64,000 nt of DNA from a virus (IMGVR_UViG_3300027686_001029); one strand, 5' to 3'. Shown: positions 2,788-13,021, counted from the stretch's first letter. A program made the numbers and translations. The notes: generated by a model from the sequence alone, not told the origin.

Positions 2788-4224
2788 TTAGTAGTTAATT
2801 AGGTTGTGTTGTATTAAAGTTGACGGTCTTTCTATTGCTTGAATTACTTCGTAAACAGGTCTCGGTTTAAAGGAATCAAATGTTTTATTCATACATCTAG
2901 CAACATTACTACTCATAGTAGAAGCAGACATTTGAGCTTCATCCGAAGTTGCAAATTTACGTCCAGTTAATCCTTTTCTATTCCTTTCTTCTTTAGTTAA
3001 GTTATAATTTAACTCTAATGCTGATGAAGCATCTTCTATTGAACATCTATCGTCCCATATGTAAGGAGTTGCAGGTGAGCCTTGTAAGGATATATTAGAA
3101 GGGTATAAAGGAATTGCCCATTCACCGTGATCTTTATAAGTTCCTCTATGGTTAGAAGGAAAATCTGGAGTAAAGTTAATCCATTCTCCTTTTTCATTAG
3201 TAAATCTCATTTGATCTTGCATTCCTCCTGTTGTGTTAGCACATATCATAGTACCTGCCATCATAGATTCAGTTAATGCTAATCCCCATCCTTCGTTAGA
3301 AGACATTAGTAATGTAATATCGGCTAAGTTGTACAGTAGATTCATTTGTGCGGGCGTAAGTCTATCTGTAGAGAAATAAATGTTAACAAATTCTGGATCT
3401 GTTAAGGTTTTCTTAATAGCTTTTAAATCGGTACCGTGTTCGTCTACTTGAGCTGTATGCATTACTAACGCACATTTTTTAGCTTTATCTTTTCCTATTC
3501 TATTACAGAATTCACTATATGCTAAAATAGTATCACCAGGGTGTTTTCTATGTATATTTCTAGAGTTATAAAACACTACGTATTCGATATCTTTATCTCC
3601 AAATAATCCTTTTCTAAATTTATCAAAGTCAGGTGTAGTTACATCGATAGGTTTAAACACTGTTTCATCTATACCGTGAGGTACATATTCTATGATCTTA
3701 CTATCAGCATCATCACCTAAGACAATCTCATTAATGTTTTTAGTTTGTTTAGAAATAGCCATTAATAAATCTACTGAGTTATAATAGTGTTTATTATACA
3801 TTGGAGCAGGGTAGTCATCCCATATGTTTAACCACATAATAGGTATCTCCTGTCTTATTTCTCTTTCAATTTCGAATAACCAAGTCCAGTATCTTGGATC
3901 AGTAAAGATGAATATAGCATCAAATTTATGTATTGACATTAATTGTCTAACTAGATTAGCATCTCCATATCCATTATGAGGTTGGACTTTTACTTCAGCA
4001 TCATCTAGCCCTTTGCCTTTATTAATATCCCCTGATAAGTCAAAAACTTTCCCAACTTCTGGATGCTTTAAAGCTGCTCCTAAGTTATACCAGTTAAAAT
4101 GTTGTGCTGTATTTACTACAATCTCTCTTGCCATCGTTGCAATACCTGAATGCATTCTAATATCGTCGCATAGTAAGAGAATATTTTTTCTTTCCTCTTT
4201 TTTAATATAACCTAACTCTTTCAT
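2788..4224 (-). CDS. glycosyltransferase, GT-B fold (GT4-like)
   Basis: HSGIAT, YVPHGID, RNIHRK, EGWGLALTESM signature. Confidence 0.88.
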   Translation of the reverse strand: MKELGYIKKEERKNILLLCDDIRMHSGIATMAREIVVNTAQHFNWYNLGAALKHPEVGKVFDLSGDINKGKGLDDAEVKVQPHNGYGDANLVRQLMSIHKFDAIFIFTDPRYWTWLFEIEREIRQEIPIMWLNIWDDYPAPMYNKHYYNSVDLLMAISKQTKNINEIVLGDDADSKIIEYVPHGIDETVFKPIDVTTPDFDKFRKGLFGDKDIEYVVFYNSRNIHRKHPGDTILAYSEFCNRIGKDKAKKCALVMHTAQVDEHGTDLKAIKKTLTDPEFVNIYFSTDRLTPAQMNLLYNLADITLLMSSNEGWGLALTESMMAGTMICANTTGGMQDQMRFTNEKGEWINFTPDFPSNHRGTYKDHGEWAIPLYPSNISLQGSPATPYIWDDRCSIEDASSALELNYNLTKEERNRKGLTGRKFATSDEAQMSASTMSSNVARCMNKTFDSFKPRPVYEVIQAIERPSTLIQHNLINY

Positions 4225-4416
4225 TTATTTTCTGAGATTTAATTTGTTAGTCTTATGTACCTTCTCTTTGAACTCCTTATCAGTAAGATAGAGAAAAATA
4301 GAACGATCTGCAAGCTTTTTAAAAGAAAAGTTTTCTTGTAAAGCTGCCATTTTAAATTGATCGAATAAAGGCTGTGTAATTTTAACCGAAGTTAGTTTTT
4401 CTTCTTTTTTAATCAT
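4225..4416 (-). CDS. small protein, possible ribbon-helix-helix DNA binder
   Basis: LTSVKI strand followed by two helices; abuts the GT gene. Confidence 0.5.
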   Translation of the reverse strand: MIKKEEKLTSVKITQPLFDQFKMAALQENFSFKKLADRSIFLYLTDKEFKEKVHKTNKLNLRK

Positions 4417-4465
4417 AACTTTGTTTTTAATTATATAAATATATACTTATATAAATATACCCTTT

Positions 4466-5425
4466 TTATAAAACTGCTTCAGGACAAAGCCTCATCTTTT
4501 TTACATTGCACCATTTACAGTTATCCTTAGTAGGATTAGCTTTATGATCTTCTTCTATATAGTTACCTAGATGATCCACTGCCTTAGTAATAAAGTTTTG
4601 CATTATCTTAAGTACCTTATTAGTATTTCCTTTTCCGGAAGCAGGGCTAAACTCTTGAACTCTTCTTTGCATTGCTGCAAATTCTGCTTCAACCGGTACT
4701 CTTCTTTTAACAACAAAGTACTCCACATCAATTTTATCAATATCAATATTAAATTGCTTTGCAAAAAACTTTTTATATAGTATAAGTTGCTGAGTTTTGT
4801 TAAGGTCTTTTTTATCTAAAGCACTCCATCCTCTAGTTGAGGTCTTGATATCTACAATTTTCCACCTATCTACTCTTGCATCGTAAAATACTAAATCAAT
4901 AAAGCCTTTAAACATTACTCCAGGACGTAACTCTTGGTATAAGAGCGTCTCTACTCCTGCTAAATGTACGCCCTTAGTATTAAAGTATGCACGTCTTTTT
5001 TTCTTGATAAATTCAAAAATATGTTTACCGTCTAACCAGAACATTCTTAAGTCTTCCGCAGTAGCAAAGTGCTCATGTCCATTCTGTGCTTTGGTAGACT
5101 TGTATGCTTTAATCATATTCTCATATAACAATGCATCTACATCCATTGCCATAGCATCTTTTACCTTACCATGATAAAGTACCTGTAACCATTCTTGTAG
5201 GGTTTCGTGAAATGCTGTTCCGAAAGAAGCATGTATTGAACCCTCATAGGGTATAAGTTTCTTAACGTAAGTTAAGTACCACTGTTTAGGACATCTATCG
5301 TAAGTAGAAAGTTGAGAATAAGAAATATGTTTATTCTTCTTAGATTGTTTAATCTTAGATTCCCATACCTCTTTCACTGCAGGTATAGCTTTAGTATTAA
5401 CTGCATCATGATATATCTTCTTCAT
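4466..5425 (-). CDS. PD-(D/E)xK exonuclease, Cas4/AddB-like with Fe-S cysteines
   Basis: ISYSQLSTYDRCPKQW, GFIDLV, IVDIKTS, QLILY, C-terminal CKWC...C (1+3 Cys). Confidence 0.82.
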   Translation of the reverse strand: MKKIYHDAVNTKAIPAVKEVWESKIKQSKKNKHISYSQLSTYDRCPKQWYLTYVKKLIPYEGSIHASFGTAFHETLQEWLQVLYHGKVKDAMAMDVDALLYENMIKAYKSTKAQNGHEHFATAEDLRMFWLDGKHIFEFIKKKRRAYFNTKGVHLAGVETLLYQELRPGVMFKGFIDLVFYDARVDRWKIVDIKTSTRGWSALDKKDLNKTQQLILYKKFFAKQFNIDIDKIDVEYFVVKRRVPVEAEFAAMQRRVQEFSPASGKGNTNKVLKIMQNFITKAVDHLGNYIEEDHKANPTKDNCKWCNVKKMRLCPEAVL

Positions 5426-5432
5426 ATACCTT

Positions 5433-5849
5433 TTACTTTTTCCACATACCGCGTTGGACTAGCTGAGCTATTATTCCATAGTTAGTAACGTCTTGAAACG
5501 TATCTATTATAGTTTCGTTTTGAGCTTTTCTACCAGAGATAATCATATTCTTCCACCTATTAATCTTATCTGAAAGTCTGTACCAAAGGCCAGTCATAGC
5601 GAACTCTGTTTCATCATCTGTGTCTAAATTAGTTCCAGCACTAACATTATGCATTCCATAATCTAAATGTTTTTTAGCAAATAATTCAAACTGTTCATCT
5701 ATGATAGATTGATAACCATCATGTATTGTAGGGTATTCACTTTTTAAAATCTCTCTTGCTGTTTTTACAGGCTCTCCGTGCATTGCGTTCATTATCTCTC
5801 TACTACTCATATTTGTCAAAATATCTTTTAAGGGTTTGTAATACATCAT
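5433..5849 (-). CDS. DUF1599 / nucleotide-modification-associated domain 1-like protein
   Basis: KKHLDYG...RLSDKINRWKNM...ETIIDTFQDVTNYGII. Confidence 0.75.
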   Translation of the reverse strand: MMYYKPLKDILTNMSSREIMNAMHGEPVKTAREILKSEYPTIHDGYQSIIDEQFELFAKKHLDYGMHNVSAGTNLDTDDETEFAMTGLWYRLSDKINRWKNMIISGRKAQNETIIDTFQDVTNYGIIAQLVQRGMWKK

Positions 5850-6021
5850 CAGCTTCTGCTAATGCTTTTGCAGCATCTTCTGCGTTTTTATAAAAATCGT
5901 CGGTAGAATGATCTCCTATACCAGCAGGATTTTCCATTAATAGTTCAAATGTAAGTAATGCTTTTTCTTTCTGAGTTTCGAAAGACTTTTTAAGCATCTT
6001 TATTAGTCTATACTGTGCCAT
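5803..6021 (-). CDS. hypothetical phage protein
   Basis: AAGTT leader and promoter directly upstream; helical NPAGIGDH protein. Confidence 0.6.
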   Translation of the reverse strand: MAQYRLIKMLKKSFETQKEKALLTFELLMENPAGIGDHSTDDFYKNAEDAAKALAEADDVLQTLKRYFDKYE

Positions 6022-6042
6022 AACTTATATATTGTTTAATAC

Positions 6043-6091
6043 TTAAATATACGAAAAAATATTCGGGTCTACAAATATCTAATGATATTTT
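6043..6091. repeat. 49-bp direct repeat, copy 1 (pairs with 7555-7603)
   Basis: ttaaatatacgaaaaaatattcgggtctacaaatatctaatgatatttt; 48/49 identical to copy 2. Confidence 0.95.
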
Positions 6092-6096
6092 TTTCC

Positions 6097-6576
6097 CTAT
6101 GTAAGCTCAGTATGTACTGTTGAATCAATTGTTTGGATATACTTATCAACTAGTCGTGATACTATTTCTGGTTTCCTATCATTCTTGAATGTAACTTTGA
6201 TTTTAGCCGTAGTTGAACGCTTGCCTCCATCTGAATCTACAAGAATTTCCTTTATATTATGTTCGGTGTGTCCTTTTTTCTTAAAGATACCTAATAATGA
6301 TTTTTTTAAAGAAGATGTATTGGTACCACCAAAGTTTAACCTTGCATCGAATTCTATTTCTAATTTTTCAAGACCTATTGAAGAGTGGTCTGCTAATATG
6401 TAAAGAGGTATTACAACATCCTTACCTTGTATTTTCACCGAAGTTGTTTCTGGATTACCTTCATCATCGAAATAATGTCTCAATGAATTTATGTGTTGTC
6501 TTTCACTTAAGTTAGAAGCTACGAGAGCGGCCTCTAAGAGACCACTCACTAACTCCTCAATCTTTAATTTTGCCAT
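6097..6576 (-). CDS. DUF2589-family protein (second paralog)
   Basis: EELVSGLLEAA N-terminus, IPLYILADHSSIGLEKLEIEF, AKIKVTFK...PE..SRL. Confidence 0.7.
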   Translation of the reverse strand: MAKLKIEELVSGLLEAALVASNLSERQHINSLRHYFDDEGNPETTSVKIQGKDVVIPLYILADHSSIGLEKLEIEFDARLNFGGTNTSSLKKSLLGIFKKKGHTEHNIKEILVDSDGGKRSTTAKIKVTFKNDRKPEIVSRLVDKYIQTIDSTVHTELT

Positions 6577-6597
6577 AACTTATTTTTTAATTGTTTA

Positions 6598-7206
6598 CTA
6601 CTCTCCTGAACCACCTTTACCTCCAGCTGCTGGCTGAGTAATAGGATCCATTAGAGTTGTCAGCATATCAGATAATTTTAACATACCCTCTGTTGGAGGT
6701 AATTGTTCTGCATGTACATTTACTTCGTACTTAGCTGAATTATCAGTCTCTCTTGTATTTTCTCTTGTAGTTGAAACTTCACCATGTACTGTTACTTCAA
6801 CTGGGGAAAACCAACTTTTAGATTTTACATCAACAGTTGATTTTATATCCGTTTTAGAGTGATCTTTTACTGTTTCTTTCACTTCCATAGTAAAACTGAT
6901 ATCCGCTTTAGTTATTGCTAAAGATGGGATTGGTACTAATGGTAGCATTGGGATTTGAGAATGAACTATTTGTAATTGTGGTGCTCCACCTTTTGGGTCT
7001 GCAACAAAACGATTTAGTGCAATCTTAAGTTGTTTTGCTTCTCGAGCATCTCCTTCTTTACCTTCTTTTGGTGCTTCAAAAGCTACTTCTTGAATGTAAT
7101 TCCAAGCTACATCGTTTAATGCTGCTTGTCCTTTAGCCATTCCGATTAAAGGTGATACGATTAGGTCTTCGATAGGAAGTCCTCTGAATTGGTCTGCAAT
7201 TGGCAT
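6598..7206 (-). CDS. DUF2589-family protein (first paralog)
   Basis: FRGLPIEDLIVSPL..MAKGQ..L, IPMLPLVPIPSLAI, ENTRETDNSAKYEVNVHA, PEGMLKLSDML. Confidence 0.82.
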   Translation of the reverse strand: MPIADQFRGLPIEDLIVSPLIGMAKGQAALNDVAWNYIQEVAFEAPKEGKEGDAREAKQLKIALNRFVADPKGGAPQLQIVHSQIPMLPLVPIPSLAITKADISFTMEVKETVKDHSKTDIKSTVDVKSKSWFSPVEVTVHGEVSTTRENTRETDNSAKYEVNVHAEQLPPTEGMLKLSDMLTTLMDPITQPAAGGKGGSGE

Positions 7207-7325
7207 AATTTATTTTGTTTGTTTAGTTAATAAAATGAAAACCTTTATTATGTTGCAGATAAGTATAAACCTTTATTTCTGTAACTAATATAAATATATA
7301 AGATTTTCACTTTTAATATAATTAA

Positions 7326-7529
7326 TTAAGAGAATTTAGCAATATCTGAATATTTATTTTTAATCTTTTCCATCTCTCGTAAACCCTCTCTTAAAGTATC
7401 AGTTGCAATATCACTTGTTTCAAAGTTCATTATTACCTCACAATGAGGACAAACTGAGACTGGGTTATCTAATATGTATTGAAGTGTTAAATCGAGTGGA
7501 TTCTTACACGAAGGACAGGGCATTGCCAT
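7326..7529 (-). CDS. small Zn-ribbon protein
   Basis: CPSC...CPHC; promoter and AAGTTAT leader upstream. Confidence 0.7.
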   Translation of the reverse strand: MAMPCPSCKNPLDLTLQYILDNPVSVCPHCEVIMNFETSDIATDTLREGLREMEKIKNKYSDIAKFS

Positions 7530-7554
7530 ATATAACTTATTTACTGTTTATTCT

Positions 7555-7603
7555 TTAAATATACGAAAAAATATTTGGGTCTACAAATATCTAATGATAT
7601 TTT
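7555..7603. repeat. 49-bp direct repeat, copy 2; contains the last codons of 7581-8729 and a promoter
   Basis: ttaaatatacgaaaaaatatttgggtctacaaatatctaatgatatttt. Confidence 0.95.
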
Positions 7604-8729
7604 CTTCCTTTTCGTTTTTAATACCTCCACCGATATCTTTCTTATCTAGCCAAGCTTCAGTATTATCAGAATAGAGTACTCTTATTTTTGAAGGAGATTT
7701 TTGTAATATTTTTATAATTTTCTTCTCTGGAATTGGTTTATCATTCTCATCTGATATTATCCAATCTTCTTCTTTTATAATTTTAGGTGAGTGTAATGTT
7801 CCTTTTACTTTAGGTGCTATAACAGTAATAGGGTCTACTACCTCTATTTCGTTTACGTTTACAGTCTCATCTTTTTTTTTAGTAGGAGGTTCTTCCTCTT
7901 CTAACTCACCGTATAGATTCTTCCTATTAGCGTTGTCGAATGCAAAGTTTGCTGCAATTACTAATGAAATAGCTAAAGGATCAAATACAAATATAATTAC
8001 TAACAACAATATGTTGATAATCTTATCCATAGAAGTACCAGTTAATCCGGAAAGGTATTGAAGTGGACCTAACTCTCCTGCTACTTCAGAATTATTCTCT
8101 AAAGTCAGAATTTCGATTTGATACTTTTGTAAGGAATCGGCTGCCACTTCTCGTTTAGTTTGAACCTTTTGTCGGTTTTCTTCTTCCACTTCGATACGTT
8201 TTTGGGATAACCTAAGCTCTGTAGTAGAGATTGTTGATCGAAAGCCTGAAGATACCGTGGTGTCTCGTACTTGGATGTTTGAAACTTTCGCATTAGATAA
8301 AGTGCTAATGTTATTAGAGATTCTTTCAAGTTCCTGATCATATCGTATAACGTCTTTATTGTAGAAGTCTTTCTTTTGAGTTAAGAAAGCTGTTTGATTG
8401 TTTTTAATTGTTAGCTGTCTATAAGTATCTTGATATGCTGCACTTAAAAAGCCGTATATACCCATACTAGTAATAAGTACTAAAACTACAGCAGCAATAG
8501 AGAGATACGTTCTAAGAAGCTTATTTATAGTGTCCCAATACTGGTATAAGAGTGAAGCTATAACTAGTTTAGCTACCTCCAATGAACCTGCCATTATAAT
8601 TACCTCTAGTGTAGCTCCTGCAAATAGCTTACTTAACCCACTTACGGAGTAAAAAGCAGCTGAGCCGCTTACAGAGAGAGCAGTTAATGCTATAATGGTA
8701 GGGAAAAAGTTTCTTTTAATTCTATTCAT
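7581..8729 (-). CDS. multi-pass membrane protein with long coiled coil
   Basis: three N-terminal TM helices, about 120-aa coiled coil, further TM (IINILLLVIIFVFDPLAISLVIAA), acidic tail. Confidence 0.7.
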   Translation of the reverse strand: MNRIKRNFFPTIIALTALSVSGSAAFYSVSGLSKLFAGATLEVIIMAGSLEVAKLVIASLLYQYWDTINKLLRTYLSIAAVVLVLITSMGIYGFLSAAYQDTYRQLTIKNNQTAFLTQKKDFYNKDVIRYDQELERISNNISTLSNAKVSNIQVRDTTVSSGFRSTISTTELRLSQKRIEVEEENRQKVQTKREVAADSLQKYQIEILTLENNSEVAGELGPLQYLSGLTGTSMDKIINILLLVIIFVFDPLAISLVIAANFAFDNANRKNLYGELEEEEPPTKKKDETVNVNEIEVVDPITVIAPKVKGTLHSPKIIKEEDWIISDENDKPIPEKKIIKILQKSPSKIRVLYSDNTEAWLDKKDIGGGIKNEKEENIIRYL

Positions 8730-9157
8730 TATTGAGCTAGTAAAAGTAAAGTTGCAAATACTCCGATGCCTGAACCTATCTGGTATAGTTTCTTAGCACG
8801 AGCCTCTTTCTTTAATTCTTTTTGTAACTGATTAGAAAGAACATCTGAAGTTTGTAACTGTACGTTTTTATCGCTAATAATTAATTGGTAGTTTTTAACT
8901 TGCTGAGATAAGTTAGTGTTTAATTTAAGTGACTTATCTAACCTGTTATTGGTTTCTTGAATCAATTGATTTAATGTTTTATTAGTCTTTTCTAATCCAT
9001 CAAAGCTGATTAAGTCTTTTACGACTAACTTAGCTATAGGTTTAGTTAATACTATCCTTGTAGTATCTGTAACGGTCTGTGAAAAACTGTTCCAGCTTAT
9101 CATTACTGTAAAGATTAACAGCATCAAGCTGTTTCTGTGTTTCTTTTTTGATAGCAT
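8729..9157 (-). CDS. exported coiled-coil protein with C-terminal TM; spanin-like candidate (start may be 9124)
   Basis: signal peptide ending SFS|Q, coiled coil, hydrophobic C-terminus; overlaps upstream TM-coiled-coil gene next to the amidase. Confidence 0.5.
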   Translation of the reverse strand: MLSKKKHRNSLMLLIFTVMISWNSFSQTVTDTTRIVLTKPIAKLVVKDLISFDGLEKTNKTLNQLIQETNNRLDKSLKLNTNLSQQVKNYQLIISDKNVQLQTSDVLSNQLQKELKKEARAKKLYQIGSGIGVFATLLLLAQ

Positions 9158-9401
9158 ATATCTTAATATTTAAGTTTTTAATTTTCCTATCGTAGTTTGC
9201 TAGCTCTAATACAAGTGAATCAGCTTGTACTTCTAGCGTAATGTTTTTAACTTGTAGAGAATCTATCTTACTCTCTAAAGCTACTATTTGAGACTCATAC
9301 TTAGATACATCTGTTTTTATATCAGTAGGAGCAAAGATCATTCTGTACAACACTATAGCAGCAATAGCAATTATAACGTTCTGTATTAATGTCTTATTCA
9401 T
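9042..9401 (-). CDS. inner-membrane-anchored coiled-coil protein; i-spanin candidate
   Basis: N-terminal TM then heptad repeats; follows the amidase. Confidence 0.5.
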   Translation of the reverse strand: MNKTLIQNVIIAIAAIVLYRMIFAPTDIKTDVSKYESQIVALESKIDSLQVKNITLEVQADSLVLELANYDRKIKNLNIKIYAIKKETQKQLDAVNLYSNDKLEQFFTDRYRYYKDSIN

Positions 9402-9421
9402 ATAGTATAAATATAAGAAAA

Positions 9422-9922
9422 TTACTTTGATCTAGCAACTAATGTACTCTTAAATGCTTCCCAGTCAAAAGCGTTACCAGGGTCAGGTTTACCTTTCCCT
9501 TTACCTCTTACGTGATCACCGGAGCAGTCTGAGTGTCTTACTATGTTATCTATATCTATATTATACTTATTCATCCAGAAACTAAATACATTTACAGCAG
9601 TATCAAATTGATGCTTTGTGTATGTACCTTTTTTCTTAATTTTAGAATTAAACGATGACCAGTCATTTACTCCTGCTACTAATAGTTCAACTCCTAAGTA
9701 ATGTGAGTTGAGATGTTTTAGACCATTCCATTCTGATTTACCTGCATGAAAGGCTTTACTTGGAGACACAATATGTTTGTCATATGTACCGTCAGGTTTA
9801 ATATAACCATGAACGGATAAACCTATTTCTCTTATAAATTCTTTAGCATATAGTGTCTTACCTTCATATACTAGATATTCTGACATACTGTGTAGTATCA
9901 GTCCTTTTGGAACAATTGGCAT
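9422..9922 (-). CDS. N-acetylmuramoyl-L-alanine amidase (Amidase_2), endolysin
   Basis: LILHS, SVHGYI, AFHAG.S.W, LGVEL, IVRHSD, KPDPG.AFDW. Confidence 0.88.
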   Translation of the reverse strand: MPIVPKGLILHSMSEYLVYEGKTLYAKEFIREIGLSVHGYIKPDGTYDKHIVSPSKAFHAGKSEWNGLKHLNSHYLGVELLVAGVNDWSSFNSKIKKKGTYTKHQFDTAVNVFSFWMNKYNIDIDNIVRHSDCSGDHVRGKGKGKPDPGNAFDWEAFKSTLVARSK

Positions 9923-9933
9923 AATAACTTATT

Positions 9934-10269
9934 TTAAAATTTATCGTAATCTATTGAATCTCCACAGTTATCACAGTAACTAGGACCAGTTATAGTATGT
10001 GGATCTGCATCTGTCATTTCTATTGATTCTCCTGGTACGCCGTCATCGTCGCTGGCATTAAACCAAAAGTCTATAATCTTACCATATGAAGCAATAAATG
10101 CACCCAGTACAAGTAAAAGTATTTCCTTCCATTCTGAGCCCATTGCTGCTTCAGAAAATAAAGCTATACCTATACCTACCATAATAAGTAGAAAAGTGAC
10201 TAGAACAACGGTGGTGATAACGAACCTGTTTCTACGTACTCCTTTTTGTTTTTCTGTTATATCTGCCAT
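9934..10269 (-). CDS. holin candidate (2 TM)
   Basis: two hydrophobic helices, basic N-terminus, immediately upstream of the amidase. Confidence 0.55.
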   Translation of the reverse strand: MADITEKQKGVRRNRFVITTVVLVTFLLIMVGIGIALFSEAAMGSEWKEILLLVLGAFIASYGKIIDFWFNASDDDGVPGESIEMTDADPHTITGPSYCDNCGDSIDYDKF

Positions 10270-10511: not shown

Positions 10512-10916
10512 TTAATATTTATTTGCGGTTTTAACTTCTTCTATAGATTCTTGTAGTTCACTTAAATTAACAGGACATTCTAAATCTAACCCTGCTTTAA
10601 ATATTTCTTCCTTAATTCCGTTATTAAATATAATTAAAGTAGGAGCCATTCTAATTCTATATTTCTTTTTTGTAGCAGGAGCGTCTGCTATATCTACTCT
10701 AAAATATTTAGCACCTTTGATTTTATCCCAGTCTGAAAATGCATTTGCTTCATTAAACTTAGCCCAAAATTCAACTACTACTATATTAAATTCAGGATCA
10801 TCTCCAAATGAATGTTTTTCATTTACCTTTGATTCAAAATTACCGTCTTCAAGAGTATCTTGAGAGTAACTTATCATCGATAACATTATTAAAACTATAT
10901 TTAAGACTTTTTTCAT
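10512..10916 (-). CDS. exported thioredoxin-fold protein lacking CxxC
   Basis: signal peptide (SYS|Q), VVVEFWAKFN where WCxxC is expected, RVDI, APTLIIFNNG cis-Pro region. Confidence 0.7.
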   Translation of the reverse strand: MKKVLNIVLIMLSMISYSQDTLEDGNFESKVNEKHSFGDDPEFNIVVVEFWAKFNEANAFSDWDKIKGAKYFRVDIADAPATKKKYRIRMAPTLIIFNNGIKEEIFKAGLDLECPVNLSELQESIEEVKTANKY

Positions 10917-11233
10917 TATTGCTGCTTTTGAAGCTCATATAATCTATCGTCAATTTTTTCTAACTCCTTTAAGATAGCTTCTACATCTTCTTGAGTATCC
11001 ATTATTGTTTGTCTAATAAGTTCATCCTTCATATCGAACTCCATTCGTTCAATAGGGGGTATTGGAAGCTCTTTAGCTTCTTGTATATCAGCTTTAAGAG
11101 TAAACCACATACCTATAATAGTTGAGATTAATATAAGTATACCTCCTATAGTTTTTAGATCAAAAGCGAAATCTGGTTTTCCATCACCATCTATATCTAC
11201 TCCTACTGATACGTTATCTACTTTTTTTGCCAT
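10916..11233 (-). CDS. single-TM coiled-coil protein
   Basis: DIDGDGKPD motif, TM helix, acidic coiled coil. Confidence 0.6.
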   Translation of the reverse strand: MAKKVDNVSVGVDIDGDGKPDFAFDLKTIGGILILISTIIGMWFTLKADIQEAKELPIPPIERMEFDMKDELIRQTIMDTQEDVEAILKELEKIDDRLYELQKQQ

Positions 11234-11243
11234 TGTTATATTA

Positions 11244-11810
11244 TTAATCTAATAAATATCCATAAGGAGTAGCATTAATATCTAATCCAATTTCTATATT
11301 CTCTAATTTTAAATCTAAAGTCATATTCCTTTGAATATAAGGATTATAAAACTCACCGACTGCTGTTAAACATATAAGTCCTTTATGTGCTCCTCCTAAT
11401 TGACCAGCATCTTGAACCTGTACTTCGTTCCATACTATATAGTCATCTGGGCCTGGTATTTCTACTCCGGCATATTTGTTGTTAATATTTTGCCATGTAT
11501 AAACTCCTTTATCTAATAAAAATTCGTCATCATTAGCATCTGTATCTAATAGGTACATTGCAAAATGCTGTCTATCTAATCTTGGATTACCGTCATCAAT
11601 TTGTAAGTAAAGAATAAATATTTTTTTAGTAATACCATTTTCTTCCTTTACACCACCGAATGTATTAATTACAGAATACTTTTCATAGGGGTCAAATGAC
11701 TCTCCATCAAGAGCAATTTCGAATACAGGTATTAAAGTTTCTACTTGATCGTCTTTGCTACAGCTTAAAATTAAAATAATACAACTTATTGTTAAAAGTA
11801 TATTTTTCAT
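11244..11810 (-). CDS. lipoprotein
   Basis: lipobox-like ILILS|CSKDD with acidic residues after the Cys. Confidence 0.65.
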   Translation of the reverse strand: MKNILLTISCIILILSCSKDDQVETLIPVFEIALDGESFDPYEKYSVINTFGGVKEENGITKKIFILYLQIDDGNPRLDRQHFAMYLLDTDANDDEFLLDKGVYTWQNINNKYAGVEIPGPDDYIVWNEVQVQDAGQLGGAHKGLICLTAVGEFYNPYIQRNMTLDLKLENIEIGLDINATPYGYLLD

Positions 11811-13021
11811 TATCTAAATGTATAGTTAATTCCAAAGGAAGTGTTAAATATTTTAGTATCCCAAAACTTAGTATATTCACCTTCTGCAAATATTCCTATG
11901 TTCTTGGTAATTCTGAATCCAAAATTAGCTCCGAATTGATAATCTTCCCATTGAAGTGGTGCAGCATCTTCTCTCAATCCTCCTTTACCCCAATTTTCTC
12001 TATTAAGGTAACTAAAGTTTTCAGATCCACTGATATATTTATGAAACCCTGGAAGGTAGTTACCGTAAGCATGTAACCAGAAGTTACTTTTATAATGGTA
12101 AAAATCAAACCCTATAATTGGTGATATTAAATTGAATCCTGCTAGGTCATCCCATATTTCATTATTATACCTATTCATTAATTCACCGAAGACTCCATTT
12201 CTAAAATCTATATCAGAATAAGCTACTATATCTCCTAATTCATCCTTCCATATCCAGTTTTGTGTTTCTTCTTGTGTTTCATAGTCAGAATAGGTAGTAA
12301 AGTGGTCTGTATATCCGTATTCGTATCCTAATTCAAACCATTGATTAACAGGTCTTTCTATCATTTCTCCATTATCGGCCTCTACCATTTCAGTTTCGTT
12401 AAGGTAAATTTCAATAGGATTTACTCCATATACTGTTTGATGTGTTCTTCCGATTACACCTGCTGATAAAGAGAATTTCTTTCCAATACCTATTCTAGCT
12501 CTTAATTCAGCTGATTGGTAATTAAATCCTACATTACCTTGTTCTCTTGATTCTATTTTAGCAATATGATATTTGCCTGTATGTCTTAAAAAGTACCTAT
12601 GGTTAGTAAATTCTTCTCCTCTTAATCTTTCTTTTTCCCAATGTATAAGGTATTCAAATCCTTTTACTGCCGACTCTGGTCCAATTAAAGCTGTTTGTTT
12701 TTCTATGTCTGCATTACCTGTCCAGAAGTTTCCAGGTTTATTTTCGTAATCGTATCTTCCTAGCTTTCTTATACCGAATCCTATTCTATAGTCATAGTCA
12801 TAGTATTCAGTTACATCTATTACTTTTGGTATATCATAAAGACCTCCCTCTTCTGGTCTAGCTACGAAGTAATCTTTTCTAGTATTTTCGTATGCATTTG
12901 TTATGTCTCCTGCAACATAAAATGTACTGTACTTTAAAAAGTCCTTATAGAAATTTTCAAAAAATTGTGCATTAACAGAACTAGTTATGAAAAATGCAAC
13001 TAAAAGAATTATATGTCTCAT
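11810..13021 (-). CDS. outer-membrane beta-barrel-like exported protein
   Basis: signal peptide VNA|Q, aromatic-rich alternating strands, C-terminal FNTSFGINYTFR OMP-like signature. Confidence 0.6.
   Translation of the reverse strand: MRHIILLVAFFITSSVNAQFFENFYKDFLKYSTFYVAGDITNAYENTRKDYFVARPEEGGLYDIPKVIDVTEYYDYDYRIGFGIRKLGRYDYENKPGNFWTGNADIEKQTALIGPESAVKGFEYLIHWEKERLRGEEFTNHRYFLRHTGKYHIAKIESREQGNVGFNYQSAELRARIGIGKKFSLSAGVIGRTHQTVYGVNPIEIYLNETEMVEADNGEMIERPVNQWFELGYEYGYTDHFTTYSDYETQEETQNWIWKDELGDIVAYSDIDFRNGVFGELMNRYNNEIWDDLAGFNLISPIIGFDFYHYKSNFWLHAYGNYLPGFHKYISGSENFSYLNRENWGKGGLREDAAPLQWEDYQFGANFGFRITKNIGIFAEGEYTKFWDTKIFNTSFGINYTFR

Follow-up and report, generated by a model that had tools for sequence, protein, structure and literature searches.

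Small transmembrane holins are regarded as the proteins that initiate phage lysis, and both holins and spanins are transmembrane or lipoprotein-anchored proteins. The beta-pore-forming toxins (aerolysin/epsilon-toxin, alpha-haemolysin and the bi-component leukocidins, and anthrax protective antigen) have a hairpin of Ser/Thr and small hydrophobic residues with an aromatic tip. The bi-component leukocidins are organised as two paralogues, and binary toxins associate with variable enzymatic "cargo." In PVL phages, the two-component leukocidin genes adjoin holin and amidase genes. In defence systems, Pepco (Trypco1/2) acts as a beta-barrel pore effector that a protease activates (Evans et al. 2025, bioRxiv 10.1101/2025.11.14.688446); this small soluble protein has a disordered C-terminal tail, is proposed to build its beta-barrel pore from inside the cell, and has an associated protease/STAND sensor.

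We analysed a 64,000-nucleotide stretch of DNA (the window) from a 177-kb IMG/VR virus genome with ~33% G+C, in which nearly all genes lie on the window's minus strand. An initial annotation had described a phage-borne system of two DUF2589-like proteins (here A and B) and a zinc-ribbon protein, and the source record bears out the phage-borne part of that description; the three ORFs are also where it placed them. The features of this trio and its surroundings are:

7581-10269, minus strand: lysis-type block, upstream context outside the cassette
7532-7608, no strand assigned: direct repeat, copy 1 (from the 77-nt repeat comparison)
7326-7529, minus strand: zinc-ribbon gene, ORF of 67 aa with CPSC...CPHC
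7207-7325, minus strand: spacer of 119 nt between the zinc-ribbon gene and A, with ATAAAGGTTT twice; possible internal regulatory site
6598-7206, minus strand: A, DUF2589 paralogue, ORF of 202 aa (Pfam 94.8 bits)
6736-6876, minus strand: part of A that encodes the inserted beta-hairpin (residues ~111-157)
6097-6576, minus strand: B, DUF2589 paralogue, ORF of 159 aa (Pfam 48.5 bits)
6020-6096, no strand assigned: direct repeat, copy 2, 91% identical to copy 1

We tentatively propose that these three genes, an accessory module acquired by horizontal movement, encode soluble proteins that form a pore late in infection and so help signal-less enzymes to cross or rupture the envelope. Like the genes of holin-endolysin(-spanin) cassettes and of holin/hydrolase-dependent ("type 10") secretion, the trio is found beside signal-less endolysins of interchangeable families. 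Unlike holins and spanins, A, B, and the zinc-ribbon protein have no transmembrane helix, signal peptide, or lipobox, and compared with holin lysis the mechanism suggested by their sequences would be a beta-hairpin pore formed by soluble proteins. By analogy, Pepco is the nearest mechanistic counterpart of A, and the two have a small soluble build and a C-terminal tail in common. A is larger (202 vs. 117 aa) and comes with a paralogue that lacks the hairpin and with a zinc-ribbon partner, and the trio has no associated protease or STAND sensor: no serine or cysteine protease fused to a sensor was found in the cassette, among its neighbours, or among the recurrent neighbours across lineages. 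The trio has no match to the Trypco/Pepco families at E up to 0.1 (the Pfam scan returns DUF2589 only). A has the hairpin signature in common with the beta-pore-forming toxins, its pairing with B recalls the two paralogues of the leukocidins, and the variable enzymes beside DUF2589 pairs recall the cargo of binary toxins, but the fold and sequence searches gave no match to these toxins and A has no secretion signal. Finally, a chromosomal cassette in Myroides sp. WP-1 likewise has A-type and B-type members, a homologous zinc ribbon, and an adjacent wall hydrolase without a signal peptide, whereas the window's module is carried by a phage, contains a single A and a single B, and was inserted at a distance of 1.9 kb from the endolysin.

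The DUF2589 pair and its zinc-ribbon partner

Both A and B match the Pfam model PF11655 (DUF2589; 154 positions) over nearly its entire length: A at positions 1-153 with 94.8 bits (E 8.7e-27) and B at positions 2-153 with 48.5 bits (E 1.6e-12). Both scores are above the gathering cut-off of 23 bits, in agreement with the initial annotation, which had read the pair as two divergent DUF2589 paralogs. The clades of A and B align weakly with each other by hhalign (E 0.034), so the case for paralogy is their common match to the Pfam model in the same register. B starts 21 nt past the stop codon of A, and a Pfam search of the whole 177-kb genome found no other DUF2589 genes.

As a sequence family, A and B are simply new members of PF11655. 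What is new is the lack of any characterised relative, and how much this matters depends on the mechanism being confirmed. The close homologues (992 for A and 409 for B) are all unnamed metagenomic proteins, and the wider family comprises 786 clusters at 50% identity. Neither protein has a match in PHROGs, PADLOC, or NCBIfam, and the matches in the ESM Atlas are to DUF2589 or unnamed clusters only. Megablast of the region against GenBank phages gave no match; tblastn of A against the same phages gave one 23% match, to an unannotated faecal contig, and no cultured phage as a carrier. The literature that we searched mentions DUF2589 only in passing and describes no function for it. The initial annotation had taken DUF2589 pairs to be mainly bacterial, which is contradicted by a pattern scan that found just this one clade of A on as many as 188 IMG/VR contigs of up to 483 kb. 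(The diverse alignment of A is too variable for pattern scanning, and a locus search with a single protein gave no match.)

The zinc-ribbon protein has PCPxC...CPxC and then a C-terminal helix ending in KY..IAKF. In Pfam it has weak, sub-threshold zinc-ribbon matches only. The four cysteines and the C-terminal helix are conserved in 49 distinct sequences, which were taken from the loci described below; a direct homologue search, limited by its word index, gave 3 proteins.

We defined the cassette as a hairpin-bearing A, a hairpin-less B, and a ~65-aa CxxC...CxxC protein within 2 kb on one strand. This arrangement is present in the window, at ~90 loci in 21 lineages, and in Myroides. At the ~90 loci (94 were fetched), the three genes lie within 1.3-1.7 kb of each other. 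Grouping these loci at 90% identity of A gave the 21 lineages, with all three genes found in 20, and the order of the genes is Zn-A-B in 14 lineages, A-B-Zn in 5, B-Zn-A in 1, and A-Zn-B in 1. Linkage that is kept through rearrangement is good evidence that the zinc ribbon works with the DUF2589 pair. The initial annotation had included the zinc ribbon in the system as a putative regulator or antidote; with the trio occurring in four orders across 21 lineages, and in bacteria as well, a functional link to A and B is supported more strongly than was proposed there. It is a constant third member alongside the DUF2589 pair.

All three proteins appear to be soluble. None has a signal peptide, and their N-termini are polar and lack a lipobox. 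Hydrophobic windows of 19 residues are rare among the homologues: 9 of 95 for A, where they reflect only a Pro-rich PLLPLVP stretch that is not a transmembrane helix, 0 of 93 for B, and 1 of 92 for the zinc ribbon, so that no transmembrane helix is predicted in any of them. We considered and rejected a canonical holin, given the lack of a transmembrane helix in A, B, or the zinc ribbon, even though they are encoded near a signal-less endolysin in 7 of 20 lineages (within 60 bp in two). We also rejected a spanin, as none of the three has an N-terminal transmembrane anchor or a lipobox cysteine.

In bacteria, DUF2589 is patchy, being found in 11 of the 201 Bacteroidota genomes that we sampled. 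Two Myroides isolates (including WP-1) carry a chromosomal DUF2589 cassette with a zinc ribbon that is 30% identical to the window's (pairwise E 4e-7). The order of genes is two DUF2589 genes, a 65-aa zinc ribbon, a B-type DUF2589 gene, and an enzyme with PG_binding_1 and Peptidase_M15_4 domains; a histidine kinase and a LuxR-type regulator adjoin the cassette. The enzyme has no signal peptide, and the operon encodes no transmembrane protein. In more distant bacterial relatives, the DUF2589 pair adjoins other signal-less proteins; in one such lineage, the neighbour is a protein with an Anthrax_toxA domain, and one of the paralogues is fused to a lectin-like Laminin_G_3 domain. The pattern is one of a constant DUF2589 core with variable signal-less enzymes.

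Two other arrangements were seen in distant relatives. On contig L129, four RebB (R-body) genes (3093-4774, minus strand) adjoin a distant B-A pair of DUF2589 genes, which lies on the other strand. And on L128 (4678-5034) and L130 (2087-2374), which hold distant bacterial relatives, a protein of 95-118 aa takes the place of the zinc ribbon beside the DUF2589 pair; it has no Cys pairs and has the motif LNR.L...P.GRII.

An accessory insertion between two direct repeats

The three genes are bracketed by a 77-nt direct repeat, with 91% identity between the copies. Copy 1 consists of the last 8 codons of an upstream gene for a 382-aa protein and the intergenic region up to the start of the zinc-ribbon gene. 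Copy 2 directly follows the stop codon of B; it retains a relic of the 3' end of the 382-aa gene and runs into the start codon of a 72-aa gene. The repeat occurs only in these two copies, at the ends of the cassette, both in the window and in the 177-kb genome. In the viral contig L109, the order of genes is thioredoxin-like, holin-like, amidase, 119-aa, 142-aa, and 382-aa, followed after 60 nt by DUF1599 and nuclease genes, and this single junction aligns with both copies of the repeat. Furthermore, none of the 15 IMG/VR contigs that carry the 382-aa gene (L109 and 14 others) has the trio near it. The bracketing repeat and the empty site in L109 indicate that the trio is accessory and mobile in this lineage; in this phage, it is a recent accessory insertion. 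We also considered the 72-aa gene (5803-6021), which encodes a helical protein, as a fourth partner, and rejected it because it has no homologue at other trio loci.

The trio had been assigned an early-type promoter before the zinc ribbon and a late-type motif before A, and neither assignment is supported. The sequence upstream of the zinc ribbon is the 77-nt unit, which is present only twice in the genome, at the cassette ends, and so is not a general promoter class. Upstream of A, exact ATAAAGGTTT is found at 7239-7248 and 7267-7276, 28 nt apart in the spacer between the zinc ribbon and A, and nowhere else in the 64-kb window. In a scan for sigma-70-type promoters, sites were no more numerous than in shuffled sequences.

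In L007, L013, and L014, which are the phages whose trios are most similar to the window's, the genes directly upstream of the trio are syntenic with 10512-13021 of the window (a thioredoxin-like 134-aa gene and genes for proteins of 105, 188, and 403 aa). This implies that the lysis-type block and the trio have been rearranged with respect to one another from one lineage to the next.

An accessory cassette between direct repeats that close relatives lack could instead be a moron for superinfection exclusion, defence, or abortive infection, with a pore-former that is restrained by B and/or the zinc ribbon until a competing phage or a stress triggers it to kill or depolarise the cell. Such a role would also fit the patchiness of DUF2589 in Bacteroidota, the regulators that adjoin the bacterial copies, and the precedent of soluble beta-barrel pore effectors in defence, such as Pepco (bioRxiv 10.1101/2025.11.14.688446). 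We consider it improbable: PADLOC gave no meaningful match for A, B, or the zinc ribbon, neither the trio nor its immediate surroundings encode a sensor, protease, or NTPase, and the genes that recur nearby are those for wall hydrolases and holin-like proteins and not those for defence. The insertion counts against our own proposal of a lytic pore as well, in that the cassette is dispensable: L109 and 14 relatives do without it.

The lysis-type neighbourhood

Immediately upstream of the trio in the window is a block of five genes:

9934-10269, minus strand: holin-like protein of 111 aa with 2 transmembrane segments (2-TM), motif EWKE(I/L)LL.LLGAF..GK..D(F/Y)WF
9422-9922, minus strand: Amidase_2 endolysin (Pfam) without a signal peptide
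9042-9401, minus strand: 119-aa protein with an N-terminal transmembrane segment and a coiled coil
8729-9157, minus strand: 142-aa protein with a signal-like N-terminus, a coiled coil, and a C-terminal transmembrane segment
7581-8729, minus strand: 382-aa protein with several transmembrane segments and a long coiled coil, no family match

The amidase lies 1.9 kb upstream of the trio. The genes for the 119-aa and 142-aa proteins, which directly follow the endolysin, overlap by 116 nt in different frames, and both are kept in L109; this overlapped layout is like that of the Rz/Rz1 spanins, but these proteins have no lipobox cysteine. The 382-aa protein is kept at 66-87% identity in 15 viral contigs, always after lysis-type genes. 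L109 has the lysis block without the trio.

For a survey across lineages, we took 20 lineages with one representative each. In 7 of the 20, the 3 kb upstream of the trio include a wall hydrolase that is recognised by Pfam, and these hydrolases belong to four families (Phage_lysozyme in 3 lineages, GH19 with PG_binding_1 in 2, M23 in 1, and Amidase_2, in the window, in 1). Hydrolases account for 7 of 83 upstream ORFs, as against at least 1 of 135 control ORFs among the 25 commonest families listed, where the controls come from the remaining 9 kb of flank (ORFs downstream of the trio or at a distance of 3-6 kb). With the control count at its minimum of 1 in 135, the enrichment upstream is significant at the level of ORFs (Fisher p 0.005) and of lineages (p 0.04). 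In the two GH19 lineages, the hydrolase gene ends 7 and 56 bp before the trio. The neighbouring endolysins are on the same strand as the trio, which is usually downstream, and all six of the hydrolases that we checked lack a signal peptide. Counted against our proposal are the 13 of 20 lineages with no Pfam-recognised hydrolase within 3 kb upstream and the one lineage in which a major capsid gene (Gp23) is upstream of the trio.

Members of the 2-TM holin-like family are encoded ahead of the endolysin in the window and in L107-L109; at 25 other loci, they lie directly before or inside the trio. This 111-aa family, which lacks a Pfam or PHROG name, is a candidate holin family. Also, a single metagenomic protein fuses an Amidase_2 domain to an A-type DUF2589 domain; as it comes from just one contig and one member of its cluster, we count it as weak support.

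Two other kinds of genes were seen near the trio. A family of ~200-aa proteins with the motif WSEGCQVF and no Pfam match is encoded near the trio in five lineages (L092:883-1494, L093:7670-8260, L055:2428-3066, L007:9007-9615, and L014:6547-7155); it matches phrog_3000 and the C-terminal half of the endolysin PHROG phrog_33083, and it is probably an unnamed cell-wall hydrolase domain. And in two large phage contigs, a TonB-dependent receptor (CarboxypepD_reg, Plug, and OMP_b-brl_3 domains) is encoded ~1 kb downstream of the trio (L009:9470-11947 and L064:8298-10550).

The initial annotation had suggested, among other functions, a lysis aid that acts late, and the neighbourhood of lysis genes fits this idea. 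Counted against our proposal is that cargo expressed late in infection may also be encoded near lysis cassettes. The trio's position, with two paralogues directly downstream of a lysis block, resembles that of the leukocidin genes in PVL phages. Along with a hairpin of the beta-pore-forming-toxin type, and the bacterial lineage with a Laminin_G_3 fusion and an Anthrax_toxA-domain neighbour, this raises the idea of a late pore-forming toxin or translocator that is released at host lysis and acts against other cells, such as competitors or grazers. This idea leaves unexplained why wall hydrolases of several families are the usual neighbour and why Amidase_2 is fused to a DUF2589 domain, and the proteins have no signal peptides. 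It is also hard to reconcile with the Myroides operon: with a hydrolase and no holin, something in that operon must open the producer's own membrane. We think a released toxin quite improbable, and we prefer a pore that acts in the cell that makes it, late in infection.

The hairpin of A and the proposed mechanism

A consists of an N-terminal helix, a four-stranded sheet with a long inserted hairpin, a C-terminal helix, and a variable tail. AlphaFold2, run with an alignment of 84 sequences, gave a model (pLDDT 74.8) with a confident core, in which ~110 residues form a helix-sheet-helix unit (helix 12-42; strands 59-68, 77-86, 96-110, and 155-168; helix 173-186). Past the invariant Pro188, the tail is variable and rich in Gly, Pro, and Gln. 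The monomer model leaves residues 114-153 unmodelled (pLDDT <50); a segment that takes up its fold only within an oligomer or a membrane would be expected to behave in this way.

The unmodelled segment is the insert. Its neck is polar (Ser/Thr), the residues of its arms (121-130 and 135-145) alternate between Val/Ala and Ser/Thr, and its tip is made of W, G, P, and F. The initial annotation had noticed a Thr/Ser/Val segment with an aromatic tip, and it is indeed present, at residues ~122-146 with a WF tip. Compared with shuffled sequences, the two-residue hydrophobic alternation is significant (p 0.0005-0.008) and is conserved within the clade as well as throughout the family, and the alternation and the aromatic tip are kept across 84 diverse family members. 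The arms, with ~10-11 residues each, are long enough to span a membrane. Judging from this conservation, we describe the segment as a predicted amphipathic beta-hairpin of membrane-spanning length.

B does not have the hairpin. At the same position, an alignment of 62 sequences shows a nearly invariant helix, S..LKKSLLG.FKKK, that is cationic and amphipathic. A hetero-oligomer whose hairpins may form a beta-barrel or tube had been suggested; the hairpin is real in A, and because B lacks it, a ring with hairpins from both proteins is not what the sequences show. The AlphaFold2 model of B (pLDDT 49) is too poor for a fold search, and the sequence profile of B has only chance-level matches in the PDB.

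No solved structure was matched by the confident core of A, either in fold or in sequence: Foldseek of the model against the PDB gave no match at E up to 0.001, the sequence profile gave no match in the PDB, and exhaustive structural alignment (VIA-align wide) gave a best Z of 3.6. Against the viral model library BFVD, only unnamed family members were found. A ring or scaffold outside the membrane (for instance, a barrel collar that is soluble, which is possible given that the apolar face of the hairpin is Val/Ala and only moderately hydrophobic, or an assembly factor or minor virion part) would suit the trio's place after the Gp23 capsid gene in one lineage and the FliF S-ring, injectisome rings, and baseplate parts among the best structural rows (Z ~3), yet those scores are at noise level, close relatives with otherwise the same gene order lack the cassette, and bacterial chromosomes carry it too, alongside regulators and a hydrolase, so we rate this as improbable as a released toxin.

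Returning to the pore, we propose the following steps. A, B, and the zinc-ribbon protein would be made without a signal peptide or transmembrane helix. A would oligomerise, and its amphipathic hairpins would assemble into a beta-barrel inserted into the target membrane. B may be a co-subunit, or else a partner for membrane targeting or gating, and the zinc-ribbon protein may bind A or B as an assembly or timing factor. The pore would then let signal-less wall hydrolases reach the peptidoglycan, or it would rupture the membrane in the manner of a holin or an outer-membrane disruptor. Because the holin-like/endolysin block in this phage is already complete, the trio would modulate or reinforce lysis and would not be its sole route.

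Our tentative preference for this mechanism reflects the linkage of the trio, the hairpin, the solubility of the proteins, the hydrolase and holin-like neighbours, the Myroides cassette, the Amidase_2 fusion, and the Anthrax_toxA cargo. Against it, we count the unmatched fold of A, the derivation of the oligomer and the pore from a sequence pattern, and the putative holin-like and spanin-like genes that the phage already has. A broader claim seems to us rather doubtful: that A and B with the zinc ribbon are an unrecognised, fold-unmatched class of soluble beta-hairpin pore-formers, common to large phages and bacteria and mobile as a cassette, that gives signal-less hydrolases or toxins a holin-independent route. 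The module is small and has cultured carriers (Myroides), so it is directly testable. If the proposal is true, then a widespread soluble three-protein membrane opener with a beta-hairpin barrel would be a new principle of lysis and export. It would explain how signal-less endolysins and toxin-like enzymes exit from cells in Bacteroidota, their phages, and other groups, and it would give a function to a Pfam domain of unknown function with hundreds of sequence clusters.
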